Shown piece by piece: positions 3,438 to 23,579 of a stretch of 64,000 bases of DNA. Within the stretch, counting starts at the first letter, position 1, and every line of letters begins with the position of its first letter. Made by a program: the position numbers and the translations under genes. The notes under the pieces were generated by a model that saw only the letters and a list, made by a program, of their open reading frames with translations, was not told where the DNA came from and made no database searches. The stretch comes from Thermodesulfovibrionales bacterium (GTDB taxonomy: Bacteria > Nitrospirota > Thermodesulfovibrionia > Thermodesulfovibrionales > JdFR-86), in assembly GCA_030682405.1 (NCBI GenBank), contig JAUXOF010000082.1, forward strand, positions 1,211 through 65,210, written 5' to 3'.

Positions 3438-4280
3438 TGCGGGATCCGGGGTCCTGAGGTGCTCGAGGATTTTAGAGAGGGTGTTTTTCATCTCCTTCCT
3501 TGAGACGACCATGTCTATCAGGCCGTGCTCCAACAGGAATTCCGCCCTCTGGAAGTTATCAGGGAGCTGCTGCTTTATCGTCTGCTCTATAACGCGCGGG
3601 CCGGCAAAGCCTATGAGGCTTCCGGGCTCCGCTATTATCACATCCCCCAGCGTTGCAAAGCTTGCAGTCACTCCCCCGAATGTGGGGTCTGAAAGAATCG
3701 AAATGTAGGGGACTGCGTTTTCCTTGAGCTTCCCGATGGCAGCCGCAACCTTTGCCATCTGCATGAGGGAGAAGATGCCCTCCTGCATCCGCGCCCCCCC
3801 TGAGGAGGAGGCGATGACGAGGGGGAGTTTTTCGTTCAATGCCGTCTCCGCGGCCCTCGTTATCTTCTCGCCCACGGCAGAGCCCATGCTGCCGCCCATG
3901 AAGGAAAAGTCCATTATGACCGCCACTGCCTCGTGGCCGTTTATCCTCGCCCTTCCGGTGATAACCGCCTCTTTAAGCCCGCTCTTTTTCCGGTTCTCTT
4001 TGAGCCTCTCCGCATAAGAAAGGGTGTCTTTGAACTTCAGGGGGTCGGCTGCGGTTATATCGGCGTCTGTCTCTACGAAGCTCCCCTCGTCAACGAGTAG
4101 CCGTATCCTCTCTGCCGCGTTTATCCTGAAATGGTAGTTGCACTTGGGACAGACCTTGAGGTTTCTGTCTATCTCCTTCTTATAGATAATCTCCTTGCAG
4201 CCGTTGCACTTAACCCACAGCCCTTCGGGTATCTTTACCGTCTTTAGGGTCTGGTCTTTTGTCCTTCTAAACCACGCCAT
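3426..4280 (-). CDS. accD: Acetyl-CoA carboxylase carboxyltransferase beta subunit
   Basis: N-terminal zinc ribbon CNGCKEIIY...[10 protein letters not shown] followed by the carboxyltransferase domain ([13 protein letters not shown]). Confidence 0.9.
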
Positions 4281-4334
4281 TTTTATTCCTCATAGAAAAT
4301 TATTTAATGCAATCGCTTCTCATTAAAAATCGTA

Positions 4335-5468: not shown

Positions 5469-6406
5469 TCGAATAAACTCTTCTGTTTTTTAGGGTTATA
5501 GTTTGTCCAAAGCACCTCTCTCCGGATGCCTTTGGTAGAATGAATCGTTCTGTCTGCTCCTGAAGTTTTAAACCAGCGCGGAGACGGAAAAAACTTATCC
5601 ATTAGAGGATGAGCGTATCCTGAGACGGCGACCTTACCGCGGCATTCATTAAGCACTTTTGCGAACTCGTAGTACTGTCCTTCATCCATCTCGAAGCTGT
5701 ATGCGTTGGAGTCACCACGTGTAGCGTGGAGATAGGGCGGGTCGCAGTAAAATAACGTTCCGAGGTTGTCATAAAGCCGTATGACGTCTACCGCAGGCCG
5801 ATTCTCTATCTGCACTCGAATAAGACGCTGTGCTATATCGTCAAGCACGCTAACCCCGCCAAGCCAACGCGATACGACGCCAGACATTCCAGATCGACTA
5901 GTGTCTTTACAATTAGCCCAACGTCCGAGTGAAGCAGTTTGGGCAAGTCCAGTGCGCGTTTGGCGGGCGCGTATGTAAAAACGCCTTGCTCGTTCAACGT
6001 CACTGATTCCCTGCATATTGCCATAAATGGCAATGTAATATTCCTCGCGTGAAAAAGGCGTCAAAGCAATAGAACGGATAAGCTCTTCATGTCGGGCACG
6101 TAATACTTTAAAGAAGTTCACCGCATCACCGTCTATATCGTTATATGTTTCTACCGGAGATGGGTCACGATTAAGCAATACAGCCCCCGAGCCAGCAAAA
6201 GGTTCGCAATAGTGGTGGCACTTTGGTAATAATGGAAGCAACCAGGCAAGGTGTGAAAATTTACCACCATACCAACCGAATACAATCCGACGACGACGAT
6301 GTCGGAGATAGATTAAATTTGATTGTTTTGGTGCAAATTCTTCATCCAAATAAATAGGGGAACCGCCCCGCTTATTTTGACTTTCTTTTTGTACCTTGTT
6401 CATCAT
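5465..6406 (-). CDS. D12-class (Dam-like) N6-adenine DNA methyltransferase
   Basis: WYGGK motif near the N-terminus, SAM-binding EPFAGSGAV, catalytic DPPY (FYCDPPYLHATRG). Confidence 0.85.
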   Translation of the reverse strand: MMNKVQKESQNKRGGSPIYLDEEFAPKQSNLIYLRHRRRRIVFGWYGGKFSHLAWLLPLLPKCHHYCEPFAGSGAVLLNRDPSPVETYNDIDGDAVNFFKVLRARHEELIRSIALTPFSREEYYIAIYGNMQGISDVERARRFYIRARQTRTGLAQTASLGRWANCKDTSRSGMSGVVSRWLGGVSVLDDIAQRLIRVQIENRPAVDVIRLYDNLGTLFYCDPPYLHATRGDSNAYSFEMDEGQYYEFAKVLNECRGKVAVSGYAHPLMDKFFPSPRWFKTSGADRTIHSTKGIRREVLWTNYNPKKQKSLFE

Positions 6407-6512
6407 TAAATATCGCCTCTGTCTTCGTCCATTATCTCCGGCCGCCTGGATTACCCGTCACACGAGTTTGCGGCCCGTCACGCTGGCTTTGGTCGCAGCC
6501 CACCGTAACGGG

Positions 6513-7301
6513 CTATATCCTGTGGACTTCGCCGTCGCGAAGTATTGCTATGTTTTTCATACGGAGGCCCGCCACTTCCTTTTTAATCTGCTTAAGATAC
6601 TGGGGCTTGGGGTGTGTAATGAGTATCCTTTCGGGTATGTTCTTCATCTTTTTTATCTCTTCTTTAAGAAGCCCTGCTGTCAGGTGCCCGGTCAAGATGG
6701 CCATCTCCTTCATGCTGTTGGGCATGGAGACCTCGATAATGGCGCAGTGAACCGGGGTTTCGGTCGCATGCCATATCCTCTCCGTAGGCCCGGTGTCCCC
6801 GGTGTAAAGCAGCCTCCTGCCCCCGGCGCTCTCCACAATATAGCCTGCGGCAGGCACGGCATGGTTGACCCTGTATGCTGTGATTTTATAACTGTTGATT
6901 GCGAATGTCTTTTCCGGCCTGATGCTCTTTAGCTTGAGAACCGCACTGTCAATATCGGGTATCACGGTAAAATCCGGCCAGACCTTATCGTTTAAGAGGT
7001 TCCTCTTTATTGTATTCAGCACTGCCGGGATGCCCATGACGGTGACGCTGTGTTTTTTGTTTTTAAGAATTATATTGTCGGCAAGAAACGGTATCCCCTT
7101 TATGTGGTCAAGATGGGCGTGGGTGACGAGCACATGCCGTATCTTCCACTGGGCAGCCTCGCCGAGGACAGCGCCGATTGTGCCGGCATCCAGAAGCAGG
7201 GAGTCGTCTATGAGAAACGCCGGGGAATTAAACCCCGGAAACTCGGCGCCGGATGAACCCAAAACCCTTACCTTCATAGGACTATCTCCCCCTCCTTCCA
7301 T
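6513..7301 (-). CDS. MBL-fold metallo-hydrolase (class II cyclic-nucleotide phosphodiesterase-like)
   Basis: HxHxDH motif (VTHAHLDHIKG). 262 aa. Overlaps the 3' end of the upstream HD-GYP gene by 28 nt. Confidence 0.7.
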   Translation of the reverse strand: MEGGGDSPMKVRVLGSSGAEFPGFNSPAFLIDDSLLLDAGTIGAVLGEAAQWKIRHVLVTHAHLDHIKGIPFLADNIILKNKKHSVTVMGIPAVLNTIKRNLLNDKVWPDFTVIPDIDSAVLKLKSIRPEKTFAINSYKITAYRVNHAVPAAGYIVESAGGRRLLYTGDTGPTERIWHATETPVHCAIIEVSMPNSMKEMAILTGHLTAGLLKEEIKKMKNIPERILITHPKPQYLKQIKKEVAGLRMKNIAILRDGEVHRI

Positions 7302-8395
7302 GCCGTAAAGAACGCCTCTACAATCCCGGGGTCAAACTGCCTTCCTGCATACTTCCTGAGCTCACTAAAAGCGGTCTCCGCACTGAGGGCCTTTCTGTAC
7401 GGCCTGTCCGTTGTCATGGCATCGTATGTGTCGGCCACGGCGATTATCCTTGCAGAAAGATGTATATCCCCGTCCTTGAGCCCGTCGGGATAGCCTGTGC
7501 CGTCATGTTTTTCATGGTGTCCCCTGACCCCGGGGACGATGTCCCTCAGTTGCCTGATGTGCCCGAGTATTTCGGAGCCGTATCCTGGGTGCATTTGCAT
7601 CGCCTTCAGTTCCTCAGGCTCAAGCCTGCCCTCTTTCAGAAGGACGCAGTCTCGGATGCCGATTTTTCCGATGTCATGGAGTATGGCGGAAAGCTTCAGG
7701 TTCTCAAGCTCCGCCCTGCCAAGCCCCATCGAGCGTCCGATTGCAAGGCTGTAGTTCATCACCCTTCTTGTATGGCCTCCTGTATAGGGATCCCTTTTCT
7801 CTATTGTCTCGGCAAGGGCCTGCGCCGTGCCGTAGAATGTCTCTTTAAGCTCCTGATAGAGGTTTGCGTTTTCCACTGCAACAGCCACCTGATTGGAAAG
7901 GGCCTCAAGTATGTCGGCATCCTCGCGGTCGAACTTGCCGCTGCGCTTGTTTATCACCTGAAGGACTCCCAAAATCTTCTCCTTTGTCCTGACCGGCGCG
8001 CATACGAGGTCATGAGTGACGAATTCGCTTTTTTTGTCCGCCCCCTTAAAGAACCTGGGGTCTGACTGCACATCAAGCACGACAACCGTCTCGCCGTGCT
8101 CGGCAACCCAGCCTGCGATGCCCTGCCCCTTCTTGAGCCTTACCTCCTTGAGCTTGTCCCCCTTTTCGCCGAGGGCAACCTCAAAAAAAAGCTCTCCGGT
8201 CTCCTTGTCTATAAGAATAATGCTTCCGGTCTCGGCGCCTGTAAGCCTTGTGGCCGCCTCTATCGCCCGCCTTCTTACCTCGCGCGTCTCAAGCGTGGAG
8301 TTGATAAGTGCGGTCAGCTCTATCAGAGTACTGAGCTGCTCGAGCTTTTTCAGAGACTTATCGTCCATTACTCCCGGCATCTCTAAACCTGTCAC
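7274..8395 (-). CDS. GAF domain / HD-GYP domain protein (putative c-di-GMP phosphodiesterase)
   Basis: GAF-like N-terminal half. HD (ILHDIGK) and HHEKHDGTGYPDGL signature in the C-terminal half. Confidence 0.85.
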   Translation of the reverse strand: MTGLEMPGVMDDKSLKKLEQLSTLIELTALINSTLETREVRRRAIEAATRLTGAETGSIILIDKETGELFFEVALGEKGDKLKEVRLKKGQGIAGWVAEHGETVVVLDVQSDPRFFKGADKKSEFVTHDLVCAPVRTKEKILGVLQVINKRSGKFDREDADILEALSNQVAVAVENANLYQELKETFYGTAQALAETIEKRDPYTGGHTRRVMNYSLAIGRSMGLGRAELENLKLSAILHDIGKIGIRDCVLLKEGRLEPEELKAMQMHPGYGSEILGHIRQLRDIVPGVRGHHEKHDGTGYPDGLKDGDIHLSARIIAVADTYDAMTTDRPYRKALSAETAFSELRKYAGRQFDPGIVEAFFTAWKEGEIVL

Positions 8396-8400
8396 AGCGT

Positions 8401-9183
8401 TCAGACTATTTTATCCCTGAGGCCACTGAGGAATCTCCTCAGCTCCTCCTCAGGCTCGCTAAGCCTCTTTACTATTGCGCTCCCTACGATGACGCCGTCT
8501 GCAAGCGCAGCCACTGCCTTTGCCTCCTCAGGGCTTCCCACCCCGAACCCGACGGCTACGTGCGTCTTGGTAAGGCCGCGCACGCGGGATATGGATTCAG
8601 CCACAGACTCCTCAAGAAGAAGCCTTGCCCCTGTAATCCCGGTTATTGAAACATAGTATATAAAACCCCTCGATGATTTTGCCACTTTTTTTATCCTCTC
8701 AGGCGTGGAGGTGGGGGCAAGCATGAATATCGTGTCCACCCTGTGCTTCCTCGCAACCGGGATGAGGCTTCCGGCCTCGTCAGGCGGAAGGTCGGGTATT
8801 ATCAGGCCGTCCACCCCTGCCTCTGATGCGTCCCTTATAAACGCCTCCTCGCCGTACTTAAAGACCGGATTATAGTAAGTCATTAAGACTATGGGGATTT
8901 TTGAGAAAAGCCGTATCTCCCTTACGAGGGACACTACCTTGCGGAGCGTGACCCCGTTAGCAAGCGCCCTTTCTGCGGCCCTCTGTATGACAGGGCCGTC
9001 GGCAACCGGGTCTGTGAACGGGACCCCAAGCTCGATAATGTCCGCGCCGCACTCCTCAAGAACTTTAATAAGCCCCTTAGTCCTTTCTACGGACGGATCC
9101 CCGGCCATTATGTAAGGTATGAATGCCTTCCGGCCCTGCTTTTTAAGGTTGTTAAATGTTTTTGAGATGTTTGACATCGGCAT
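8401..9183 (-). CDS. trpA: Tryptophan synthase alpha chain
   Basis: 260 aa. Typical TrpA motifs (ELGVPFTDPVADGPVIQ, GFIYYVSITGITG). Confidence 0.9.
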   Translation of the reverse strand: MPMSNISKTFNNLKKQGRKAFIPYIMAGDPSVERTKGLIKVLEECGADIIELGVPFTDPVADGPVIQRAAERALANGVTLRKVVSLVREIRLFSKIPIVLMTYYNPVFKYGEEAFIRDASEAGVDGLIIPDLPPDEAGSLIPVARKHRVDTIFMLAPTSTPERIKKVAKSSRGFIYYVSITGITGARLLLEESVAESISRVRGLTKTHVAVGFGVGSPEEAKAVAALADGVIVGSAIVKRLSEPEEELRRFLSGLRDKIV

Positions 9184-9186
9184 CCA

Positions 9187-10035
9187 TTAAATATGCAACC
9201 GTTTAATAAATTCCTCATGCTTTGTTGTTAAAATAATTTGATTAACTGGATATATCCTATCATTGAATTTGACCTTTACAAGCCAATTGTCCTGATCAAA
9301 TTCGTTTTTAACCTCTGCATATTCAAATTGTCTATGACAATTAGGACACACAACTAAAAGATTTTTCGGATTGTTAGAAAGAAGAGGGTTAATATGATGA
9401 ACTTCAAAATATGGCTCGTTATCTTTTTTAAGAAACCAGAATTCACAAACTTGGCAATGACCTTGATAAATATCACCTAACAAAACCCTTAAATTGTTAG
9501 GCACGCTCTCCTTTGCTTGATTTGAGCGTCTATTTACATAGCGTCTTACCTCTGTTGGTAAGGTATCAACCAGACGAACATATTCGTTGAGAACAACTTG
9601 GCTTCTGTCAATACTTGCCCATTTTGAAAGCTTTAAAATTTCTTCCTTTGCTGAAACGTCATTTTCTGAACTATCAAGACTCTCTTGGAGTTCATGGGTT
9701 TTCAATATGTATTTACTCTCAGGTATTAATCTATAAATAAAATGTTTTTTATCCACCAATTGAACAACAATTTCATCGCCATCTTTAATCTTATTGCGTC
9801 TAAACCATTCCGCCATACCGCCAATTCTGCATTCTCTGGTTTTACTCTCATAAGAAGAATACTTCTTACTTTCAGGGGTGATAGAGTCATCCAAATAAAT
9901 TTGAATTCGAGCATTATGCTCAGGAAACCATTTTATCAAAGATATGGGTATCGCTATTAAGCCCTTATTGATACGGCTTTGCGTTATTTTGATTGTTGCA
10001 TAATTATAGTTAATTGGACTTTTGACTTTAATCAT
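9187..10035 (-). CDS. HNH endonuclease domain protein with N-terminal beta-rich putative DNA-binding domain
   Basis: C-terminal HNH/zinc motif CQVCEFWF...FEVHHINPLLSNNPKNLLVVCPNCHRQFE. AT-rich. Start overlaps the stop of the upstream 55-aa ORF (TAATG). Confidence 0.75.
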   Translation of the reverse strand: MIKVKSPINYNYATIKITQSRINKGLIAIPISLIKWFPEHNARIQIYLDDSITPESKKYSSYESKTRECRIGGMAEWFRRNKIKDGDEIVVQLVDKKHFIYRLIPESKYILKTHELQESLDSSENDVSAKEEILKLSKWASIDRSQVVLNEYVRLVDTLPTEVRRYVNRRSNQAKESVPNNLRVLLGDIYQGHCQVCEFWFLKKDNEPYFEVHHINPLLSNNPKNLLVVCPNCHRQFEYAEVKNEFDQDNWLVKVKFNDRIYPVNQIILTTKHEEFIKRLHI

Positions 10036-10202
10036 TAATCAGGCATTACCTCGTCGCAATCTTTCCATTCTTCTAAAGAGTTTAATATTTGATTATCATC
10101 TATTGGCAAGCTTTTCGCTTTTTCGTATGCAGATTCTTCATCTGCCGCATCTACTTCATAAGAACAAAAACCGGAAAAATATTTCCTCACAATGTATTTC
10201 AT
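10035..10202 (-). CDS. Small acidic protein (55 aa), below the ORF-track cutoff
   Basis: Hand translation: MKYIVRKYFSGFCSYEVDAADEESAYEKAKSLPIDDNQILNSLEEWKDCDEVMPD. ATGA overlap with the upstream gene and TAATG overlap with the downstream HNH gene. Confidence 0.4.
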   Translation of the reverse strand: MKYIVRKYFSGFCSYEVDAADEESAYEKAKSLPIDDNQILNSLEEWKDCDEVMPD

Positions 10203-10816
10203 ATTTCACCTTTGAGGTGGTCAACTTTTGAGTAATAGCTATTTGTGATAGGCGTATTCCCCATGATGATAATCGGTAGTTTTGACGCTTTAGAGCTTGA
10301 GACTCTTATATTTATGCTTTTGCCGATTGCCTTGAGCATTGAATCAGAACGTAAAAGGCCGGGATTCCCTTGATGAGTTCTATAGTCACCAATACAGACT
10401 AATGACTTACTCTTTTGCCGTTCCCAATTCCAGACGATAGACATTTTGACTTCAATTATCGCTGATATGTCTTCTGGATTTTGATTGATATTATTTTGTT
10501 TAGATATAACTACATCGGCAGGAGACATATTAGACAGAGCAATCTCATTACAAATAGCGCCCTTAACTGCGAATAACCCCATATCTTTTACAATCGCCTG
10601 AATTAAGTCAGTAGTCCATTTTTCTGTGAAACTTCCAATTAAAGCATTTCTGCTTTGCAGAGTGCTTTTTTTACCATCATAACCTTTGGGCCAGTAAGCC
10701 AGATACTTGCCAGAGTCAGTGACATAAAATAACTGTTCCGGCGTTGCAAACCGAGTTGACTCTTCAAGGAACTTTTGCTCAACTTGTTTGTTCCACAGTT
10801 TTTCCATTTGAGCCAT
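10199..10816 (-). CDS. Hypothetical protein, candidate PD-(D/E)XK nuclease
   Basis: 205 aa, AT-rich. Candidate motif SPADVVIS ... AIIEVKMS (D-Xn-E-X-K). First gene of a 3-gene coupled cassette between trpB and trpA. Confidence 0.4.
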   Translation of the reverse strand: MAQMEKLWNKQVEQKFLEESTRFATPEQLFYVTDSGKYLAYWPKGYDGKKSTLQSRNALIGSFTEKWTTDLIQAIVKDMGLFAVKGAICNEIALSNMSPADVVISKQNNINQNPEDISAIIEVKMSIVWNWERQKSKSLVCIGDYRTHQGNPGLLRSDSMLKAIGKSINIRVSSSKASKLPIIIMGNTPITNSYYSKVDHLKGEI

Positions 10817-10865
10817 TTTACCCTTTTATTAGCCGAATATGGAAGGTGTTCATTCGATCATCCCC

Positions 10866-12041
10866 TTATAATTCCATCCCCTTAATCCGGGCAACGTGCT
10901 CCACGTCCTTGTCCCCGCGGCCAGAGAGGTTTATGATTATGATTTTATCCTTCGGGAGCGCAGGGGCGAGCTTTGCCGCCTCTGCCACTGCATGGGCGGA
11001 CTCAAGAGCAGGGATTATGCCCTCTGTGCGGGATAAAAGCTCAAATGCAGAGAGGGCCTCGTCATCAGTGGCATATGTGTACCGCACCCTTCCCGTGTCT
11101 TTAAGATATGAATGCTCCGGCCCGACTGAGGCGTAATCAAGCCCTGCCGAGACCGAGTGCGTGCCGAGGACATTTCCGTCTGCGTCTTGAAGGAGATAGC
11201 TCTTTGTGCCCTGAAGCACGCCTACCGAGCCTCCGGCAAAGCGCGCCGCATGCTCGCCGCTTTCTATGCCCCTTCCTCCTGCCTCCACCCCTGTCATCTC
11301 AACGGCATCGTCCAAAAACTCGTAAAAAAGCCCTATGGAGTTGCTCCCGCCGCCAACGCAGGCTATGAGATAATCCGGAAGCCTGCCCTCTGCGCGGAAT
11401 ATCTGTTTTTTGGCCTCCCTGCCTATTACGGATTGAAAGTCCCTTACGAGGGACGGAAAAGGGTGGGGGCCAAAGACAGTGCCTAAAACATAGTGTGTGG
11501 TGCGGACATTTGTTGTCCAGTCGCGGAGGGCCTCGTTTATCGCATCCTTAAGCGTCCTTGAGCCTATGTCCACTTCCCTGACATCCGCGCCCAACAGCCT
11601 CATCCTGACGACATTCAGGGCCTGCCTCTTTACGTCCTCCGTACCCATGTATATGACGCACTCCAGCCCGCAAAGAGCGGCCCCTGTTGCAGTTGCAACG
11701 CCGTGCTGGCCCGCGCCTGTTTCGGCGATTATTCTTTTTTTGCCCATCTTTTTTGCAAGAAGGGACTGTCCGAGCGCGTTATTGATTTTATGAGCGCCTG
11801 TGTGCGCGAGGTCTTCGCGCTTAAGATATATCTTTGCCCCGGCCAAGTTCTCGGTAAGCCTTTTTGCGTGATAAAGCGGGGTGGGCCTTCCTATGTATGT
11901 CTTTTGGAGATGGGTAAGCTCCTCCTGAAAATCCTTGTCGCGCTTGGAGTTAAGATACGCCTCCTCAAGCTCCGCAAGTGCGGGCATGAGGGTCTCCGGC
12001 ACGAACCTGCCGCCGTACTGGCCGAAATAGCCTTTTTTCAT
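10866..12041 (-). CDS. trpB: Tryptophan synthase beta chain
   Basis: 391 aa. PLP-lysine region [24 protein letters not shown] loop. Confidence 0.92.
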
Positions 12042-12123: not shown

Positions 12124-12363
12124 CTATTTCCTGAATTTTTTACTAATGCCTGTTATTGTTAACCCAACTACTTTTTTGCCTCGGAGTCTCAGAAATACAC
12201 CATTTTCTAATATATCCGTATCAGTTGCCCTTTGAGGACGCTCTAAACTAATATACAGGACATCAGCTTCTTCATCGAAATCAAACCACAGGTGTTTTGC
12301 ACCTACTTTTTTGATATGAGGCAATGCCTCAAATATCTCCTTTATTGCTGTGGTTGCTGCCAT
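12124..12363 (-). CDS. DUF2283-like small protein (putative antitoxin-like partner)
   Basis: 79 aa. Pattern DVLYISLERP...GLTI is typical of DUF2283. Overlaps the upstream 107-aa ORF. Confidence 0.55.
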   Translation of the reverse strand: MAATTAIKEIFEALPHIKKVGAKHLWFDFDEEADVLYISLERPQRATDTDILENGVFLRLRGKKVVGLTITGISKKFRK

Positions 12364-12665
12364 ACTATTTTCCTCCCTTTCGAAAGTTTCTTTATCTTTG
12401 TAGTGACAAACGCTGTGATAATGAAACCGTCTTTCTGTTCTTTCATCTCTTTATAAATTACAAGAAATGCCTTTCTTTGAGAGATAAGTTTTACCGCCCA
12501 GAGATCATCCACATCTCCTTCAATCACCCATGTAGGGCTTGAAACAGCCTCCAAAATATCATAATAGTATCCTGCCATATCATCGTGATTTTCTACAATA
12601 TGACGCCACCTTTCACCTGTTAAGCGAATCGGGACATTATTGACCGATAATGCAAAATCAGTCAT
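12342..12665 (-). CDS. Hypothetical protein, possible BECR-type toxin partner of the DUF2283 protein
   Basis: 107 aa. RWRHIVENHDDM histidine-rich segment. Gene-pair architecture only. Confidence 0.3.
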   Translation of the reverse strand: MTDFALSVNNVPIRLTGERWRHIVENHDDMAGYYYDILEAVSSPTWVIEGDVDDLWAVKLISQRKAFLVIYKEMKEQKDGFIITAFVTTKIKKLSKGRKIVWQQPQQ

Positions 12666-12979: not shown

Positions 12980-13282
12980 ATGCCGTCGCTTAAGGAAAAG
13001 CCGTTGTCCGTCGAGATAAAGGCGAGGGGGCAGGTTACCATTCCAAAAAAGCTGAGGGACAGATTCCACCTGACCGAAGGCACGGAGCTTGCCATCATCC
13101 CGATAGGAGAAGCGCTGCTCCTTGCGTCAAGGCCGCTGCCTCTTGAAGAGGCCCGGAGGAGGCTTAAACAACTCATGAAGGACTCCGGCCTTACCCCTGA
13201 AGAACTCATGAGAGAGTTGTCAAGGGATAGGGAAAAGCTGGCCGCGGAACTTTACGGCAAAGGGCTTTACGGAAAGGGTTGA
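12980..13282 (+). CDS. AbrB/MazE/SpoVT-type antitoxin
   Basis: SpoVT-AbrB signature IKARGQVTIPKKLRDRFHLTEGTELAI. Stop overlaps the start of the PIN gene. Confidence 0.75.
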   Translation: MPSLKEKPLSVEIKARGQVTIPKKLRDRFHLTEGTELAIIPIGEALLLASRPLPLEEARRRLKQLMKDSGLTPEELMRELSRDREKLAAELYGKGLYGKG

Positions 13283-13737
13283 TGCCCCTCAAGGTATATC
13301 TCGACACGAACGTCATCATCTCCGGGCTGCTATCCGAGGAAGGCCCGCCGAGAATCATACTGGATATCCTTTCCCTCTCTCTCCCCGAGTTAAAGGGCGT
13401 GACAGGGGAATTCAACATGCTTGAGCTTAAGGCAAATATAAAGAAAAAACTGCCAAGGCTTGAGAAGCCCTTTTTTGATGCGGCAAAAAAGCTGAACCTT
13501 GAGATAGTCGGTCTTCCGGAAAGCGAGGCGGTAAGCAGGCTGAAAGAGATAATCGCTTTTAAAGACGCGCCTGTCTTGGCCTCGGCGCTTGGCGCGGGGT
13601 GCGATTACCTGATAACCGGGGACAAGCATTTTAGGGCCGAGGGAGTTAAAAAAGCCGGGCTTAAGATAAAAATCGTCTCCCCGGCAGAGTTCGTTGAGGA
13701 AGTGCTGCCGCGGGCGCTTAAAGCGGGGCTTGGTTAG
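13279..13737 (+). CDS. PIN-domain toxin (VapC-like)
   Basis: 152 aa. N-terminal VYLDTNVIISGL, C-terminal DYLITGDKHF. Coupled to the AbrB-type antitoxin. Confidence 0.75.
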   Translation: MMPLKVYLDTNVIISGLLSEEGPPRIILDILSLSLPELKGVTGEFNMLELKANIKKKLPRLEKPFFDAAKKLNLEIVGLPESEAVSRLKEIIAFKDAPVLASALGAGCDYLITGDKHFRAEGVKKAGLKIKIVSPAEFVEEVLPRALKAGLG

Positions 13738-13774: not shown

Positions 13775-16219
<2,445 letters not shown>

Positions 16220-16287
16220 TCACTCGTAAAAAATACTATGTTTATTATAACTTCACACGAATGATTTTTGTTGGCAATTTTTTCCTC

Positions 16288-16315
16288 TTGACAATCTTAT
16301 TATATTAAGTATAGT
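16288..16315 (+). promoter_or_regulatory. Near-consensus sigma70-type promoter (TTGACA-N16-TATAGT)
   Basis: TTGACA at 16288-16293 and TATAGT at 16310-16315, upstream of the small ORF and the 531-aa gene. Confidence 0.4.
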
Positions 16316-16442
16316 TTTAATAATGAAGCTATTGTTGCATTTATACCAGCTTCTGTTGTTGAGAGTTATTTCAGCCCCCCCTCTTGACTTAACTTTAAAT
16401 CGTTTGGTAGACTGTCCTAATTTTTTAACGAAAGGGGATCGT

Positions 16443-16607
16443 ATGAAAAAGAATGTGGCTACTTCTTTGAAAATCAAAGGGGGACCTTCAAGCCAATCGC
16501 GTAATCCCTTAAAGGGGCGCAAGACAAAGGATGAAACAAAGCTTCTGTCACTATTAACATCTTGGCATAATAATGCAAACAAGGAGAAATATCTTGTAGC
16601 ACGATAA
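16443..16607 (+). CDS. Small basic ORF (54 aa) with double-glycine-type N-terminus
   Basis: RBS GGGGA 5 nt before the ATG. MKKNVATSLKIKGG|PSSQSRNPLKGRKTKDETKLLSLLTSWHNNANKEKYLVAR. Ends 10 nt before the 531-aa ORF. Confidence 0.3.
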   Translation: MKKNVATSLKIKGGPSSQSRNPLKGRKTKDETKLLSLLTSWHNNANKEKYLVAR

Positions 16608-16617
16608 TAACTGCTTA

Positions 16618-18213
16618 ATGATAAAATTCCCCCTGCGCCAATGGATTCCACTGGAATCAACTTCTCTCTTTCAAATAATTGCTCAGTGCACACATGGTTC
16701 TAACCCGTTAAATAAGCGACCCTTCCACCGTCTTTGTTCTCTCATGAGAAAAATGGGCGCTCAAGCTCTATGGATTGAAAAAGTAAACCCGGCGAACAAT
16801 ACCGACATAGATTATGAGTTTACTTATTTAGGAAAGTTTTTTCCTTCGGTTAATGCAATGGCATACCGCCTTTTTTTTGTGAGAGAAGACATTTCCAAAC
16901 GAAAAAGTTTTGATTTTAATAATTTAACTTTTCTCTCTTGCTCTACCATTATAAACTATACCGCCGGAAGTATTAGTGATTCATATTTGCTCTACTCGAT
17001 TACTGCGACCCCTAAAAAACATAATTATATTCGCCATAGAAAGGGATTGCCTTTAATGAACTATTATTTTCACTCTGTTAAAGATTATCATTTTAATTTT
17101 CCGGCGCCAGATGGTGAAATTAAATTCACAATTCGCGGTGCGCCATTTTTTCAGAGAAATAACAAAACGGCGTTTTGTATGCAATCTGCTCTTGCTACTA
17201 TCCTGAACCATTTAAGTTCTTCTACTGAATTATTATTGCCCAATAAAATTAACACGCTTTGTGGGGGAAATATCGGCAAGGAATTGACATTGGATAAAAA
17301 AAATACTATAGACCTCATAAAAAAAATGGGCTTACACGCTAAACGTTTTGTTTTTAACCAAGAACAAACACAACAAGTCTTTGCAAAAATGCTCAACTTG
17401 CATGATTGCCCGCCTTCTTCTCTCCTTTATCCGTGGATGGAAAGTGGTTTTCCGGGGTTTATTATATTTTATCCTCCAAGCGTAAAAGGGACTGTTGACG
17501 ATGCCCTTCATGTTGTCCCAATAATTGGCCATACCTTAAACACTGACTCTTGGCAACCAGAAGCTGATATTAAATATAGGCGCAGGGTTCGTTTGCATTT
17601 CCGCCCCGTATCAGCGTGGGTAGATAATTTCATTATCCATGATGATAATTTCGGTATGTACCTTTGCTACCCAACTACCAAGCTGGCGGAAAAGAAAAGA
17701 GGTATTGGATATTTGGTTGATTTCGTTCTTTTCCTTACCAAAATGGATATCCCATATCCTCCCGATAAAACTGAAATCGAGCTGATTAGTTTAGTGCGTC
17801 GCTATTTAAAACCGACAGAGGATAATATTTGGATCAACCGATTGGTAGAGGAACCTACTCCACTCGTTTCGCGTACAGTTGCTGCAACAAAAGAAGAATT
17901 TATTCACAGCCTGAGTGATTATGACTCAGAAAAAAATAAAATCCCCCGAAATACAATAGGGCAAATTACCAGACATCTGCCAGAAAATTTTTGGTTAACG
18001 GAAATCACATTACCCGATCTATATATAGCAAATAAAACTGCTCTCATTAGCATTGTAAGCACCTTTGAGACCGGAAATATTTGTTTTATTCGACTCCCAC
18101 GTCTTTGTAGTTATATCAACGGAGGTGACGTTGTAGAGAGCGTGGACTTACCAACAAACGGTCATTATAAAATTTACACTAAAAAAAATGACAACGAAAC
18201 TTTTGATTGGTAA
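16618..18213 (+). CDS. Hypothetical 531-aa protein with candidate papain/C39-like cysteine peptidase core
   Basis: AT-rich, opposite strand to the flanking gyrB and dnaN. Ordered candidate catalytic motifs FFQRNNKTAFCMQSA (Q...C), ALHVVPIIGH (H), FIIHDDNFG (D/N). Confidence 0.45.
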   Translation: MIKFPLRQWIPLESTSLFQIIAQCTHGSNPLNKRPFHRLCSLMRKMGAQALWIEKVNPANNTDIDYEFTYLGKFFPSVNAMAYRLFFVREDISKRKSFDFNNLTFLSCSTIINYTAGSISDSYLLYSITATPKKHNYIRHRKGLPLMNYYFHSVKDYHFNFPAPDGEIKFTIRGAPFFQRNNKTAFCMQSALATILNHLSSSTELLLPNKINTLCGGNIGKELTLDKKNTIDLIKKMGLHAKRFVFNQEQTQQVFAKMLNLHDCPPSSLLYPWMESGFPGFIIFYPPSVKGTVDDALHVVPIIGHTLNTDSWQPEADIKYRRRVRLHFRPVSAWVDNFIIHDDNFGMYLCYPTTKLAEKKRGIGYLVDFVLFLTKMDIPYPPDKTEIELISLVRRYLKPTEDNIWINRLVEEPTPLVSRTVAATKEEFIHSLSDYDSEKNKIPRNTIGQITRHLPENFWLTEITLPDLYIANKTALISIVSTFETGNICFIRLPRLCSYINGGDVVESVDLPTNGHYKIYTKKNDNETFDW

Positions 18214-18299
18214 GAAACTTTCCCCCTCTTACCCCCAAAATATATTGTCGTTTACTTTTTTGAAATAAGTACTATCGCCTCTGAATCCTAAAGGCCTCC

Positions 18300-19400
18300 C
18301 TATATCCTCATGGGCATGATAACGCACCTGTAGTCCCCTGAATCGTCCTTTCTAAGGAGCGTGGGGCTTAGCTGGTCCTGAATCTCAAAGACGACCTTCT
18401 CCGTGGGTATTGCGCCGAGGGCGTCAAGGAGGTATCTTGCATTGAACCCTATGGTAACGGCCTCGCCGCCGTAGTCTATGGCGATTTCGTCCGTGGCCTC
18501 GCCGAGGTCCGGATTTGAGGAGGTAAAGGTTAGAACGCCGTTTGCTATGTCCGCCTTCACTGCGTTAGACCTGTCCCTGCTCATTATCGAGACCCTGCGG
18601 AGCGCCCTTATGAAACTTTCCCTGTCTATGGTGAGCTTCTTTTCATTGGCAGGCGGTATCACCTGCATGTAATTGGGGTATGTCCCCTCTATGAGCCTTG
18701 ATAGGAACTCAACCGCTCCGACCTTAAAGAGTATGTGGTTTTTCCCTATAAGCACAGAGACCTTCCCGTCTTTGTCGAGGAATTTCCTGAGTTCCGAGGC
18801 CGCCTTCCGGGGCAGTATCACCTTCTTTTCCTCTTTAAGGGCGGACGGCGCCTCCTTTGTGATTACGGCCAGCCTGTGGCCGTCCGTGCCAACGACGGTA
18901 AAGCTTTTATTATCGGGAGTTATATGAAGGAGGAGGCCGTTTAGGGTATATCTCGTATCAGACTCTCCTGCCGAATATATGGTCTTCTCTATCATCTCTG
19001 AGAGTTCTGAGGAGTTCATCTCGAACTCGTCCGCCTGCTCCATGGACGGCCATGCCGGGAAGTCTTCGGGTGAAAGACAGGCAAGCCTGAAGTTGCTTGC
19101 CCCGGCCCTGACCCGTATCCACTGCGGGTCGTCGGACTCTATTACGATGTCCCCTTCCACTTCCCTGACTATCTCAAAGAGCTTTCTTGCCGGTATGCAG
19201 AGCCTTCCTTCGTTGTCCGCGGTCAGGGCAAGGGGCTCCCTTATGGCGGTCTCAAGGTCCGTGGCCATGATATGCGCCTCCTCTTTCCCGGCCTCCAGAA
19301 GGAAATGGCTCAAGACGGGCATTGTGTTTCTCTTCTCCACGATATTCTGGATATCGGAAAGTTTCTCCAAAAGCTCCTGCTTTCCTGCTGTAAGCTTCAT
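18300..19400 (-). CDS. dnaN: DNA polymerase III beta sliding clamp
   Basis: 366 aa. Typical DnaN N-terminus (MKLTAGKQELLEKLSDIQNIVEKRNTMPVLSHFLLEA) and C-terminus (VIMPMRI). Confidence 0.95.
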   Translation of the reverse strand: MKLTAGKQELLEKLSDIQNIVEKRNTMPVLSHFLLEAGKEEAHIMATDLETAIREPLALTADNEGRLCIPARKLFEIVREVEGDIVIESDDPQWIRVRAGASNFRLACLSPEDFPAWPSMEQADEFEMNSSELSEMIEKTIYSAGESDTRYTLNGLLLHITPDNKSFTVVGTDGHRLAVITKEAPSALKEEKKVILPRKAASELRKFLDKDGKVSVLIGKNHILFKVGAVEFLSRLIEGTYPNYMQVIPPANEKKLTIDRESFIRALRRVSIMSRDRSNAVKADIANGVLTFTSSNPDLGEATDEIAIDYGGEAVTIGFNARYLLDALGAIPTEKVVFEIQDQLSPTLLRKDDSGDYRCVIMPMRI

Positions 19401-19408
19401 ACCCCCTC

Positions 19409-20758
19409 CTATGGCTTTAGTTTAATGATAAGGTTTTCTATCATCCTGTTGAAGTTTTCGTCCTGCGCCCTTTTGGCCTCCACCTGCTTGCATGCGTAGA
19501 TAACAGTGGCATGGTTCTTTCCGCCCACGCACCTGCCTATCTCGCTCAGGGAGGTCTCCGTAAGCTCCCTTGAAAGGTACATCGCCACCTGTCTGGGGAT
19601 TGCGATGTCCTTAGTGCGCCTCATTGCCCTCATGTCGGTCAGCTTCAGGCCGAAGTACTCGGCCACTGCTTTTGCTATGGCGTCTGCTGTCAGCGCCCTG
19701 TCGTCTTCCTGAATAAAATCCCTGAGTATTGATTTTGCGGCCGGCAGGTCCACAGGGCTTCCGGTCAGGGAGGAGTGGGCGCCGAGCCTGATGAGGCAGC
19801 CTTCAAGGTCCCTTATATTGGACTTCACCTTTGAGGCAAGGAAGTGCACGACATCCCCGGGCAGGGTTATGCGCTCCATCTCCGCCTTCTTCTCTATTAT
19901 CGCTATCTTTGTCTCTATGTCAGGGGGCTGGATGTCCGCTATAAGCCCCATGCCGAAGCGGGAGCGGAGCCTGTCGGTTATGGACTTTATCTCCTTCGGC
20001 GGCCTGTCGCTTGAAAGCACTATCTGCTTCTGCCTCTCGTAAAGCACGTTTAAGGTGTGGAATAGCTCCTCCTGAGTGGCCGTCTTGTTCTCAAGAAGCT
20101 GCACGTCGTCTATGAGGAGGAGGTCGAGGTTCCTGTATTTGCTTTTGAGTTCCTCTGTCTTTGAGTTCCTGAAGGCAAAAACGACCTCGCTCGTAAACTG
20201 CTCTGAGGAAACATAAAGGATATTGCAGTCCGGCCTCTTGTCTGCCACATAGTTGCCCACCGCGCTTATGAGATGGGTCTTCCCAAGCCCCACGCCTCCG
20301 TACACAAAAAGCGGGTTATAGGCAGAACCGGGGGAATCCGCAACCGCCCTTGCCGCGGCCTGAGCGAATTGATTGGAGGGGCCTGCGATGAAGTTCCCAA
20401 AGGTGTATTTCGGGTTCAGGTATATGCCCCTGCCTGCAAGCTTTGTCCTCCTGCTTTCAAGCCGGGCGTCCATCCTCTTTATCCCGGTGGCCTGCTTCTC
20501 CGCTATGTTGTACTTTACCGCCATGTTCATGTTCCGGCCCGCAGATTCGGGCATGAGGCTGCCTATGGTTTCGGATATGAGGGCAGGGTGATAGTCTTCT
20601 ATCCACTCCTTGAAAAACCTGTTAGGCACCTCTATCGTGGCCTGTCCCTCCTTTATCTGTATGAGCCTAATAGGCTTAAACCAGAGCTCGAAAGTGCTTG
20701 CGCCCACCTTCTCCTCTATAGCTGAAAGACTTTTCTGCCAGAGCTTTTCTTCTTCCAT
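19409..20758 (-). CDS. dnaA: Chromosomal replication initiator DnaA
   Basis: 449 aa. Walker A GGVGLGKTHL, DDVQ box, C-terminal DNA-binding signature (IAIPRQVAMYLSRELT). Confidence 0.95.
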   Translation of the reverse strand: MEEEKLWQKSLSAIEEKVGASTFELWFKPIRLIQIKEGQATIEVPNRFFKEWIEDYHPALISETIGSLMPESAGRNMNMAVKYNIAEKQATGIKRMDARLESRRTKLAGRGIYLNPKYTFGNFIAGPSNQFAQAAARAVADSPGSAYNPLFVYGGVGLGKTHLISAVGNYVADKRPDCNILYVSSEQFTSEVVFAFRNSKTEELKSKYRNLDLLLIDDVQLLENKTATQEELFHTLNVLYERQKQIVLSSDRPPKEIKSITDRLRSRFGMGLIADIQPPDIETKIAIIEKKAEMERITLPGDVVHFLASKVKSNIRDLEGCLIRLGAHSSLTGSPVDLPAAKSILRDFIQEDDRALTADAIAKAVAEYFGLKLTDMRAMRRTKDIAIPRQVAMYLSRELTETSLSEIGRCVGGKNHATVIYACKQVEAKRAQDENFNRMIENLIIKLKP

Positions 20759-21074: not shown

Positions 21075-22197
21075 TTATTTTTTGCCCCCTACGGTCCCCT
21101 TAAGCGCCTCTTTAATGAAAACTCCTATGTTACCGCCAAGCACTGAGTCCACGTCCCCTACCTCAATCCCGGTCCTATGGTCTTTTACAAGCCTGTAGGG
21201 CTGAAGCACATACGAGCGTATCTGGCTTCCCCATGCAATGCCCTTCTTATCCCCGCCCGCGCCCTCAATCTTTTTTTCCTGAGCTCGAAGCCCTATGTCA
21301 TAGAGCCTTGCCCTTATTACCTTCAGGGCAACCTCCTTATTCCTGTGCTGGGAGCGCTCGTTTTGACAGGAGACTACAATGCCGGTGGGCAGATGGGTTA
21401 TCCGCACGGCAGAGGAGGTCTTATTCACATGCTGACCCCCGGCGCCGGAGGCCCTGAAGGTGTCAATTTTTAAATCGTCCTCTTTTAGGTCAACCTCCAC
21501 ATCGTCCTCTATCTCAGGGTAGACGATGACAGCGGAAAAGGAGGTGTGCCTCCTTTTATTGGCGTCAAAAGGGGATATCCTCACAAGCCTGTGCACACCG
21601 CTTTCTGTCCTAAGATGCCCGAAGGCGTAAAGGCCCCTTACCGTAAGGGTTACCCCTTTAATCCCGGCCTCATCCCCGGGCTGCATGTCCACAACCTGTG
21701 TTTCATAGCCGTTAGCCTCGGCCCACCTGAGGTACATCCTCAAGAGCATCTGCGCCCAGTCCTGACTCTCGGTGCCCCCTGCCCCCGGGTGTATGGTAAG
21801 AATCGCATTGCCCCTGTCAAACTCGCCTGAAAGGAGATATCGTATCTCAAGCTCGTCGAGAAGGGACTTGAGTTTTTTTATCCCGGCGGTGAGTTCCTCA
21901 AGGAACATCTCCCCTTCCTCTTCATCAAGCACGCCGACCGAGCCCTTAATGTAGGAAAGCCTGTCTGATGCCGTAGAGAGGGGATTAAGGACATCCTCGT
22001 AAGAGGACTTCTTTTTCCGCAGTTCCTGCATCCTCCGGGGGGACGACCATGTCTCCTCCATGGCAAGCTCCCCCTCGATGCCGGCTATTTCCCGCTTGAG
22101 CCTCTCCGTATCAAAGATAACCTCGGAGGTAGTCTATCTTTTCCTCCAAAAGGATGAGTTCCTTCTGTATATCCTCTTTAAGCACAGCACCCCCCAT
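21075..22197 (-). CDS. prfB: Peptide chain release factor 2, with programmed +1 frameshift
   Basis: Frame-0 leader MGGAVLKEDIQKELILLEEKIDYLRGYL ends at CTT TGA (TGA at 22111-22113). The +1 frame continues DTERLKREIAGIEGELAMEETW... into the 328-aa ORF, which contains SPF and GGQ motifs. Confidence 0.9.
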
Positions 22198-22361: not shown

Positions 22362-23045
22362 ATGAAGAAGATACTGATAGTGGACGAGATAAAGTCCGCG
22401 GTGGAGGAGGAGCAGGGCATCCTCAAGAGGGCCGACATTCACATATTCACGGCAGGCACAGGGGATGAGGCCCTAAATGTCCACAGGGCCGAGAAGGTAA
22501 ACCTCATTATAGCCGCGCTGGACATGCCGGGCATGAACGGCGACGAGCTCTGCTGCGCGATAAGAGAGGACGGCGGGCTGAAAAAGGTCTCCGTAATCCT
22601 CGTATGCAACAGGAGGAAGGCGGACATCGAGCGGTGTGCAAACTGCGGCGCCAATTCCTACATAACCCAGCCGATAAACCCCGAAGAGCTAAGGCAGAAG
22701 GTGGGCAAGCTCCTCGACGTCCCCGGCAGGCGGGACCTCAGGGTGCTGATAAAGGCCGAGGTCAAGGGGTACTTTAAGAGCAAGCCGTTTTACTGCACGT
22801 CCGAGAACATCAGCCGGTCGGGCCTCCTCCTTGAGGCAGGCCGCGCTCTGGCAAAGGGGGACAAGGTAAGCTGCTCGTTTTTCATCCCGGACGAGTACCG
22901 CATAATCGCCGACTGCGAGGTCGTGAGGGTAGCAAAGAAGGAGATGAACACCTACTACTACGGCATCAGGTTCACGAACATAGACGAGGGTTATGTGGCG
23001 GCCATAGACCGCTATGTCGAAAAAAGGCTCAGGGGGGAGGCGTGA
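22362..23045 (+). CDS. Response-regulator receiver domain fused to PilZ (c-di-GMP binding) domain
   Basis: REC (KILIVDE...DMPGMNG). PilZ motifs RRDLR (RxxxR) and ENISRSG (D/NxSxxG). Confidence 0.8.
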   Translation: MKKILIVDEIKSAVEEEQGILKRADIHIFTAGTGDEALNVHRAEKVNLIIAALDMPGMNGDELCCAIREDGGLKKVSVILVCNRRKADIERCANCGANSYITQPINPEELRQKVGKLLDVPGRRDLRVLIKAEVKGYFKSKPFYCTSENISRSGLLLEAGRALAKGDKVSCSFFIPDEYRIIADCEVVRVAKKEMNTYYYGIRFTNIDEGYVAAIDRYVEKRLRGEA

Positions 23046-23157: not shown

Positions 23158-23358
23158 ATGAAACTTCATGTTCATATAGAGCAAGACGAGGCCGGATATT
23201 TCGTTGCCGAGGTTCCCGCGCTTCCCGGCTGTTTGTCCCAAGGTAAAACGAGGGAAGAGGCCATTAAGAATATTCAGGAGGCGGTAGGGGGCTGGCTTGA
23301 GGTCATGGAGTCCAAACGGAAGTATCCTAAAAAGGAGATGATAGAGGTTTTCATCTGA
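23158..23358 (+). CDS. hicB: HicB-family antitoxin (UPF0150)
   Basis: 66 aa. Pattern EQDEAGYFVAEVPALPGCLSQGKTREEAIKNIQEA is typical of HicB N-terminal domains. RBS GGAGGG. Confidence 0.8.
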   Translation: MKLHVHIEQDEAGYFVAEVPALPGCLSQGKTREEAIKNIQEAVGGWLEVMESKRKYPKKEMIEVFI

Positions 23359-23390
23359 CGGGCGGCGGCCTCAAGTTCTGTTCCGGCGCC

Positions 23391-23579
23391 ATGGCGGTGA
23401 AAAAATTTCAACGGGCTGGCTGGAAGGTAAACCGTCAAAAAGGCTCCCATGTGATGATGACAAAAAAGGGTTATGATTATACCCTCTCCATCCCTCAGCA
23501 TTCCGAGCTCGGCCCGGGCATTCTAAGGAAGCTTATCAAGCAGGCAAACCTGTCCGTAGAGGAGTTTAACGGTTTATGA
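23391..23579 (+). CDS. hicA: HicA-family mRNA interferase toxin
   Basis: KKFQRAGWKVNRQKGSHVMMTK...IPQHSELGPGILRKLIKQANL. The true start may be a non-ATG codon upstream (CTG at 23355), because the frame also encodes SGA before the Met. Confidence 0.8.
   Translation: MAVKKFQRAGWKVNRQKGSHVMMTKKGYDYTLSIPQHSELGPGILRKLIKQANLSVEEFNGL

Follow-up and report, generated by a model that had tools for sequence, protein, structure and literature searches.

The window examined here is a stretch of 64,000 nucleotides (nt) from a Thermodesulfovibrionales bacterium (contig JAUXOF010000082.1 of assembly GCA_030682405.1, positions 1,211 to 65,210), and the element in question is a two-gene cassette between gyrB and dnaN that encodes a small partner protein followed by a predicted papain-fold cysteine peptidase. 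The features of the locus, in coordinates of the window and with protein lengths in amino acids (aa), are as follows.

16190-18299, no strand: inserted DNA of low guanine-cytosine (GC) content, 2,110 nt, carrying the whole cassette; recognised by the GC drop and by the empty site in relatives
16288-16315, plus strand: distal promoter-like site, TTGACA-N16-TATAGT, 11 of 12 consensus positions
16384-16413, plus strand: proximal promoter-like site, TTGACT-N18-TAGACT, 9 of 12 consensus positions, with TG upstream of the -10 box
16432-16437, plus strand: ribosome-binding site AAGGGG of the small open reading frame (ORF), 5 nt before its ATG, read from the sequence
16443-16607, plus strand: small partner gene, 54 aa
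16618-18213, plus strand: peptidase gene, 531 aa
13775-16189, minus strand: gyrB, an 804-aa ORF alignable end to end with the GyrB adjoining dnaN in relatives; a host gene, divergent from the cassette
18300-19400, minus strand: dnaN, a 366-aa ORF with 53-67% identity to the DnaN of 80 related contigs; a host gene, convergent with the cassette
19409-20758, minus strand: dnaA, by ORF position

The initial annotation of this DNA had described dnaN and gyrB as split by 2.1 kb of AT-rich DNA on the opposite strand, and had called the split unusual. Both points hold. The GC content is 0.34-0.40 across 16250-18250 vs 0.51-0.56 on both flanks, and the comparison of the junction among relatives, for which we used 80 metagenome contigs encoding a DnaN 53-67% identical to that of the window, sets the window apart. 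In 74 of these contigs dnaN is followed by gyrB, in the same orientation, with a gap of 4-422 nt, while the remaining six stop within 227 nt of dnaN, so that 74 junctions are assessable. The gene before dnaN is dnaA in all of them, and neither recF nor the cassette occurs at the dnaN-gyrB junction of any of the 80. The ordinary arrangement of this lineage is dnaA-dnaN-gyrB with nothing between. Since dnaN abuts gyrB in 74 of the 74 assessable relatives, the 2.1-kb DNA of the window is an insertion. The lack of recF, which had first been counted as part of the peculiarity, is real and is ordinary for the lineage; the anomaly is the insert. The region is a foreign, horizontally acquired cassette. 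Its ends showed no significant terminal repeats and no tRNA, and no known RNA family (Rfam) was detected. The window illustrates that such a cassette is able to split the otherwise invariant dnaA-dnaN-gyrB block near the replication origin. The insertion also separates gyrB from transcription driven from dnaN, and gyrB must now use a promoter within the ~100-250 nt divergent spacer that it has in common with the cassette (16190-16290), where a simple scan found no minus-strand sigma-70-like site.

The positions of the ORFs, the AAGGGG site and the 10-nt spacing between the partner stop and the start of the 531-aa ORF were all confirmed from the sequence. The 531-aa ORF lacks a Shine-Dalgarno sequence of its own, and given this together with the short spacing, translation of the peptidase is probably coupled to that of the partner. 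The near-consensus promoter proposed at 16288-16315 is present, and its TTGACA box aligns in eight of the nine loci of the close clade (peptidase identity >45%), mostly 127-145 nt before the small ORF; what does not stand out is the number of promoter-like sites in the region, which is at the chance level (8 found vs 6.6 expected). The proximal box, cTTGAYtt...cTGGTA (TTGAYT-N17-TGgTAnnnT), aligns in most of the nine close-clade loci at ~30-60 nt before the start codon, and a purine-rich GGAGG-like block aligns in all close homologues. Across the wider family, sites with at least 10 of 12 consensus positions occur in the 200 nt that precede the partner gene at 18 of 41 loci vs 2.8 expected from shuffled sequences. 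The cassette is predicted to be transcribed from one or more promoters of its own; the distal and proximal boxes may be tandem promoters, or one of them may be an operator.

The larger product shares 100% identity with a hypothetical protein from a Thermodesulfovibrionales metagenome-assembled genome, and every one of its 112 word-indexed homologues is unnamed. A HMMER scan of 1.84 billion cluster representatives (50% identity) returned 648 clusters at E<=1e-3, of which 456 reach E<=1e-10. Searches of Pfam, NCBIfam, PADLOC and PDB sequences gave no match for either cassette protein and the literature offered none, in keeping with the first impression that no described system could be assigned. 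Conservation was counted in 217 near-full-length family members. The putative nucleophile Cys187 is present in 216 of them, the sole exception being a Ser, and His298, Gly304, Trp312 and Asp342 are each present in all 217; Asp343 (215/217), Asn181 (213/217) and Gln179 (206/217) follow closely. Conservation in the family is highest at Gln179-x7-Cys187, His298 and Asp342-Asp343-Asn344, and these are the very motifs that had been picked from the single sequence as a Gln-x7-Cys, a His and an Asp/Asn in papain order, and these picks prove near-invariant. An AlphaFold2 model built on a 40-sequence alignment has a predicted local distance difference test score (pLDDT) of 85.2 and a predicted template modelling score (pTM) of 0.86, and divides into three domains, listed here with the putative catalytic residues (all on the plus strand).

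16618-17112: N-terminal alpha/beta domain, ~aa 1-165, from predicted secondary structure
17113-17742: predicted papain-like catalytic core, ~aa 166-375, from conservation, Foldseek and the alignment of a homologue (P0083) to PF13529
17152-17154: Gln179
17176-17178: Cys187
17509-17511: His298
17641-17649: Asp342, Asp343 and Asn344
17743-18210: C-terminal alpha/beta domain, ~aa 376-531, from conservation and the model

When the model was compared with the PDB by Foldseek, the top seven matches were all papain-fold cysteine peptidases, namely staphopains A, B and C (some in complex with staphostatin), the peptidase domain of PCAT1 and LahT150 bound to a leader, with probabilities of 0.93-1.0, template modelling (TM) scores of 0.52-0.66 to these compact protease domains and ~200 aligned columns. 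The staphopain and staphopain/staphostatin structures (1cv8, 1x9y, 8oig, 1pxv, 1y4h) rank highest among the structural matches (E 1e-3 to 2e-2), and the C39 domains of LahT150 (6mpz) and PCAT1 (7n87) are matched with probability 1.0 and TM 0.58-0.66. Thus, the earlier suggestion of a papain- or C39-like peptidase is borne out as a prediction, both by the structural matches, among which papain folds were the only meaningful ones, and by the conserved catalytic residues. We read the 531-aa protein as a papain-fold (clan CA), C39-like cysteine peptidase with a putative Gln179/Cys187/His298/Asp342 site. The N- and C-terminal domains had no structural match in the PDB by Foldseek, and the C-terminal domain also had no sequence match. 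Both carry strongly conserved residues: a helix motif HRLCSLMRKM (aa 37-46) in the N-terminal domain, in which His37 and Arg38 are kept in 165 and 177 of the 183 members where it is present, and in the C-terminal domain an invariant Arg419 and near-invariant Glu462, Asn472 and His516. No hydrophobic segment, signal peptide or membrane segment was found in either cassette protein (peptidase maximum KD19 1.3), so both are predicted to be cytoplasmic.

Placement of the family within the papain fold relies on weak matches. Among 40 members, Peptidase_C39_2 was matched by seven (E<=1), Phytochelatin synthase by six and Peptidase_C70 by one, while the window peptidase had no Pfam match at E<=10. The best case, P0083, scores 26.8 bits against Peptidase_C39_2 (PF13529; gathering threshold 24) over residues 169-288, in an alignment that begins at the Gln/Cys motif, includes the His motif and covers positions 5-134 of the 143-position profile. 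Neither the window protein nor the 40 homologues matched Peptidase C39 (PF03412), the staphopain family PF05543 was not matched in the Pfam scans of the window protein and homologues, and PDB profile searches with the peptidase and partner alignments gave nothing meaningful. In BFVD there were weak fold matches to phage 'lysozyme/peptidase' proteins, from which no link to a phage family was established. The families C47, C39, C39_2, C70, BtrH_N and phytochelatin synthase form one closely related papain subcluster (PMC10318531), and because the Pfam and fold matches fall on its members, the family belongs in the C39_2/C39/C47 part of that subcluster. It is a distant, unannotated branch there, at best a distant outlier of PF13529 and not a recognised member. 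We regard it as a family new to the papain clan, whose dedicated partner is likewise of a new type.

That partner is encoded with great regularity. A small ORF on the same strand lies directly upstream of the peptidase gene at 41 of the 42 assessable loci of a first set and at four further loci (45/46 in all), with lengths of 54-83 aa and a gap to the peptidase gene of -4 to about 125 nt. Where synonymous sites are unsaturated, its dN/dS is 0.07-0.14, which identifies the small ORF as a real gene under purifying selection. Among 246 family proteins there is no natural fusion of partner and peptidase. In the close clade the partner consensus reads MSKK..LKIK[GDAH]G..SS..R..KG.KT.EE...LS.LT.WHNNAKKKKDF[AG]G[IV]L[RK]. 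Across clades whose peptidases are only 25-30% identical, the N-terminal halves are unrelated while the C-terminal half aligns: an amphipathic helix (..E-E/Q-K/R...W-x3-S-x-K/R), three hydrophobic residues and a Gly, after which come a variable residue (G/E/Q/K/R/S), a Pro, a hydrophobic residue and 0-8 more residues (for example ...DLWAWQRESLRSAIVLGGPISG). The Gly of this helix plus hydrophobic-Gly tail is present in 38 of 41 partners and has been lost in the window copy (..KEKYLVAR) and in that of locus L001 (..KDKYLEVVLR). AlphaFold2 predicts N-terminal disorder for the window partner and a single helix over residues 29-53 (pLDDT ~77-87). No Pfam or PDB relative of the partner family was found.

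The initial annotation had read I-K-G-G at residues 11-14 as a double-glycine leader end cleaved by the C39-like enzyme, with a 40-aa cationic core after it. A search of homologues for an upstream small ORF with such a motif recovered the small ORF, as above, while the motif itself is not conserved: IKGG occurs in the window and L001, that is, in two of nine close homologues, the others having IKDG, IKAG, IKHG, IKDD or IKGR, and it is absent from the distant clades. In the window partner pLDDT falls below 50 at residues 1-3 and 12-21, which span most of the motif. The isoelectric point (pI) of the partner ranges from 4.4 to 11.3 across the family, being about 10-11 and hence basic in the close clade, and the region after IKGG is the most conserved part of the protein and not a variable core. 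On these grounds of conservation, predicted disorder and charge, we rejected the double-glycine reading of IKGG; the Gly motif that runs through the family is C-terminal, and the window copy lacks it.

Two unusual arrangements of the partner were seen. At L139 the helix and Gly tail form the C-terminus of a 216-aa protein (5307-5957), whose extra N-terminal region of ~160 aa is unannotated, and the adjoining peptidase (P0047, 6001-7632) has Ser in place of the nucleophilic Cys. At L134-L137 an orphan partner (67 aa at L134, 5001-5204) with a canonical tail (..WDWQRQSLESERVLGGPIEEYNAFT / ...VLGGPIEEYNAFT) precedes the gene for an Lhr-type DEAD-box helicase of 883 aa by 76 nt, with no peptidase homologue on the contig.

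The cassette is widespread and changes company from locus to locus. Genome matches come from at least nine phyla, including Nitrospirota, Planctomycetota, Omnitrophota, Thermodesulfobacteriota and Latescibacterota; Verrucomicrobiota, Chloroflexota, Calescamantes and Alphaproteobacteria (among them the isolate Sphingomonas formosensis) also carry it. Its GC content is below that of the flanks at 39 of 41 loci, and the neighbouring genes differ from one locus to the next. An all-against-all BLAST of 573 ORFs, combined with Pfam and PADLOC searches of the 142 immediate neighbours of 41 loci, revealed no third conserved gene and no transporter, the only recurrent arrangement being in Latescibacterota, where ORFs of ~460 and ~515 aa lie downstream on the same strand at six of six loci (L035, L036, L040, L043, L044 and L048), probably as lineage synteny rather than as part of the system. 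No ABC family is among the recurrent families of these neighbours, in agreement with the early remark that an ABC transporter is missing. Variable neighbours, the lack of a third gene, the low GC content and the upstream boxes together lead us to see the module as a self-contained, horizontally moving two-gene unit with its own promoter. Some of the neighbours are a type III restriction-modification system (L001), a Ymh protein (L005), KAP NTPases, NACHT and IetA, and other loci have integrases, IS21, TniQ, toxin-antitoxin pairs or operons of Bil/Bub type.

Three phylogenetically distant loci have the cassette abutting a ubiquitination-like operon (Multi_ubiq/Prok-E2_E/JAB/ThiF or BilD_N-ThiF) with a helix-turn-helix (HTH) or HTH+Peptidase_M78 regulator. 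At L006-L008 the ubiquitin-like (Ubl) operon (3415-5482) is upstream of the cassette (5633-7641); at L037 it is convergent with it (9056-11317 and 7046-9047, respectively); and at L138 the operon (1137-3832) and an HTH/M78 gene (4025-5214) accompany the cassette at 5716-7695. This adjacency could reflect defence-island clustering or a functional link. We did not adopt a functional link to the Bil/Bub operons, as the adjacency is found at 3 of ~47 loci and those pathways have JAB or DUF6527 peptidases of their own.

The reading that we favour, tentatively and with a probability of roughly 0.4, is that of a mobile peptidase/partner cassette with the logic of a toxin-antitoxin or defence system, in which the partner is the cognate inhibitor of the peptidase. 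The partner would dock on the peptidase via its helix and its Gly tail would be laid into the active-site cleft. Docked in this way it would keep a potentially harmful cytoplasmic peptidase silent (the toxicity is an assumption of the model), much as an antitoxin does and by analogy with staphostatin on staphopain. If the labile partner were lost or displaced, for example on phage infection or on loss of the cassette, the peptidase would be freed, and the cassette would behave as an addiction or abortive-infection module.

We infer binding, inhibition and this biological role from several lines of evidence. An inhibitor is favoured by the gene order and tight coupling, with the small gene first as in type II toxin-antitoxin modules. 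It is favoured by the motif as well, which is unlike a double-glycine site: the residue after the Gly varies and the Pro of the G-x-P is conserved, and this fits a ligand lodged in the cleft better than a site of cleavage. The partners of the window and L001 have lost the Gly and yet both genes are intact, with a dN/dS of 0.14 between the partners of L001 and L004, and a partner exists without a peptidase at L134-L137; orphan antitoxins are common. The staphopains, the nearest structural relatives, have co-encoded inhibitors that thread a Gly through the active site: in the work of Filipek and colleagues of 2003, staphostatin is said to span the staphopain cleft in the direction of a substrate with a conserved Gly at P1. 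The restriction-modification, KAP NTPase, NACHT, toxin-antitoxin, integrase and insertion sequence (IS) neighbours of some loci support an inhibitor in a defence setting. Several observations pull the other way. The partner has no DNA-binding fold recognisable by Pfam, PDB or AlphaFold2, unlike classical type II antitoxins. Staphostatins are beta-barrels of 105-110 aa encoded downstream of a secreted enzyme, so that the analogy does not go beyond mechanism. C39 peptidases recognise their substrates by just this combination of a helix and a following Gly motif. PADLOC-DB v2 has no match for either protein at E<=10, and the enrichment of defence islands is modest, with no neighbour family recurring in more than about 2-4 of the 142 neighbours.

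The alternative to be taken most seriously, doubtful as we judge it, follows from that likeness to C39 substrates: the partner may be cut rather than inhibit. The peptidase would bind the amphipathic helix, cut at the C-terminal Gly and remove the tail of 2-8 residues, leaving a Gly-ended product as the active form, in a manner resembling the maturation of Ubl precursors by papain-fold proteases or the removal of double-glycine leaders. By fold and sequence the enzyme is closest to C39 and C39_2 peptidases, enzymes that dock on a leader helix and cleave behind a Gly motif, and the short extension that follows the hydrophobic-Gly in 38 of 41 partners is poorly conserved. The occurrence of the module as the C-terminus of the 216-aa protein at L139 is what would be expected of a processing site, and the three distant loci that abut a Ubl/E2/JAB/E1 operon point in the same direction. 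However, the second Gly is variable (G/E/Q/K/R/S) and the Pro two residues after the Gly is conserved, which would be odd for the scissile site of a C39 peptidase or a deubiquitinase. The window and L001 partners lack the Gly while both of their genes are intact, the orphan partner has no peptidase to cut it, neither E1, E2 nor another conjugation enzyme is in the cassette at 44 of 47 loci, and the partner is predicted to be a single helix and not a beta-grasp fold.

It is unlikely, in our view, that the partner works away from the active site altogether, binding to DNA or to the N- or C-terminal domain and serving as adaptor, activator, chaperone or transcriptional regulator, leaving the peptidase to act on other cellular or phage proteins. 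The invariant residues of the two non-catalytic domains (the HRLCSLMRKM helix, Arg419, Glu462 and His516) would be consistent with such an accessory factor, as would the basic close-clade partners and a Gly tail that is dispensable in the window/L001 lineage. Against this, the charge is not conserved family-wide, no DNA-binding fold was detected, and a tail of the form hydrophobic-Gly-x-Pro finds its simplest explanation as something that binds in a protease cleft.

A different question is whether the enzyme is a peptidase at all. It would be an improbable outcome, overlapping with the readings above, for it to be a papain-fold transferase or amidase comparable to phytochelatin synthase, BtrH or the C39_2 cell-wall amidases, with a small-molecule or peptidoglycan-derived substrate. 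Six of 40 members gave weak Phytochelatin-synthase matches, the BFVD fold matches are phage 'lysozyme/peptidase' proteins, PF13529 domains are found in endolysins and the subcluster includes transferases (PMC10318531); yet these matches are all weak (E about 0.004-0.01), the protein carries no export signal and is predicted to stay in the cytoplasm, genes for biosynthesis or the cell wall do not accompany it, and so strictly conserved a protein partner speaks for a ligand that is itself a protein. More speculative still, and something of a long shot, is an ATP-independent protein-tagging system in which the enzyme acts like a sortase or an asparaginyl ligase. It could recognise a signal of helix plus hydrophobic-Gly|x-Pro-hydrophobic, form a Gly-thioester on Cys187 with release of the short tail, and pass the ~6-kDa partner to an amine of a target such as a phage protein. 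This idea draws on the prime-side Pro-hydrophobic and the short, dispensable tail, which are hallmarks of transpeptidase signals, on the transferases among the relatives in the subcluster (phytochelatin synthase and BtrH) and on the three loci beside Ubl-conjugation operons. In a weaker version, the pair could be a wholly new abortive-infection or toxin-antitoxin family with a cytoplasmic C39-like peptidase as its toxin. Finally, a precursor of the bacteriocin or ribosomally synthesised, post-translationally modified peptide (RiPP) type, with an IKGG leader and a 40-aa cationic core freed by a stand-alone C39 peptidase, is very hard to credit: IKGG in the window and L001 resembles the leader ends of competence peptides and bacteriocins, and the peptidase is C39-like, but the motif has the restricted occurrence and predicted disorder given above, a 'leader' of 14 residues is without the helix by which such substrates are recognised, conservation peaks in the supposed core (opposite to what leader and core normally show), the charge is not conserved, and neither an ABC transporter, an immunity gene or a modification enzyme at any locus analysed nor an export signal was found.

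The genes around the insertion include further small modules. Near the origin are small pairs of toxin-antitoxin type: a DUF2283 protein whose gene overlaps a 107-aa ORF (12124-12665), a MazE/AbrB-like protein with a PIN protein (12980-13737) and a HicB-like protein with HicA (23158-23579). The gene prfB for release factor 2, with PCRF and RF-1 domains, lies at 21075-22180 on the minus strand; its frameshift site CTT TGA is at 22116-22111, the context of the +1 site is ..GGT TAT CTT TGA T.. and the downstream frame runs into a 328-aa ORF. Programmed +1 frameshifting is a known feature of prfB. Just beyond it, at 22362-23045 on the plus strand, a gene joins a response-regulator receiver domain to a PilZ domain and probably encodes a regulator linked to c-di-GMP.

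It is useful to compare the cassette with the systems that it most resembles. With C39 and C39_2 peptidases it has in common the papain fold, the order Gln-x7-Cys ... His ... Asp and a co-encoded small protein with a helix followed by a Gly motif. It differs in that there is no fused or neighbouring ABC transporter and no PF03412 match, in its size (~540 aa with two extra conserved domains vs about 140-150 aa for C39), and in a Gly motif that is C-terminal, G-x-P rather than G-G, and with no core peptide after it. The papain subcluster also contains phytochelatin synthase (C83) and the BtrH_N acyltransferases, on whose scaffold an acyl-enzyme can be resolved by transfer instead of hydrolysis; their matches here are far below threshold, there is no glutathione or aminoglycoside pathway context, and the cassette family has a protein partner. 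Precursors such as those of Atg8 and UFM1, processed by Atg4 and UfSP, have a conserved hydrophobic-Gly followed by a short tail. Most cassette partners, though not those of the window and L001, likewise have a hydrophobic-Gly and then a short variable tail; the partner differs in its conserved Pro at +2, in not being a beta-grasp protein and in the absence of E1 and E2 at the window and at 44 of 47 loci. In bacteria, BubA is cleaved after a conserved Gly (10.1101/2024.11.21.623953), and the peptidases used by the Bil/Bub pathways are JAB or DUF6527 enzymes, not papain-fold ones.

For a partner that inhibits through a Gly tail, staphopain and staphostatin would be the closest mechanistic analogue, as in both cases a cysteine peptidase is encoded together with a small protein dedicated to it. 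The differences are considerable. Staphopains are secreted pro-enzymes whereas the cassette peptidase has no signal peptide, the cassette partner is a helical protein of about 55-70 aa encoded upstream in contrast to the larger, downstream staphostatin barrel, and PDB sequence and profile searches detected no sequence similarity to either staphopain or staphostatin. Type II toxin-antitoxin and abortive-infection modules resemble the cassette in their organisation: the first gene is small and its product looks labile, the second is larger and encodes an enzyme, the ORFs lie close together or overlap, and the pair has its own promoter. Further parallels are a patchy distribution over many phyla, low GC content, variable insertion sites, occasional orphan first genes and defence or toxin-antitoxin neighbours. 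Unlike them, the cassette matches no described family in PADLOC, Pfam or NCBIfam, its partner has no ribbon-helix-helix (RHH), HTH, AbrB or Phd domain, and a 61-kDa three-domain peptidase would be an atypical toxin. The literature examined held no described papain-like toxin or small-partner system matching the cassette.

The cassette matters as a two-gene system that is common, occurring in at least nine phyla and with at least 648 clusters of sequences, and yet lacks any annotation; an invariant Cys/His/Asp site and a co-evolving partner with a helix and a Gly-x-Pro tail give it a testable biochemical handle. An inhibitory partner would make it the first family of toxin-antitoxin or abortive-infection type to rest on a C39-like peptidase of the cytoplasm, and a partner that serves as substrate would mean stand-alone Gly-directed maturation, or even conjugation, without a transporter or an E1. 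Hundreds of 'hypothetical proteins' would gain a function either way, and the known roles of the branch of papain-fold enzymes to which C39 peptidases and staphopains belong would be widened.

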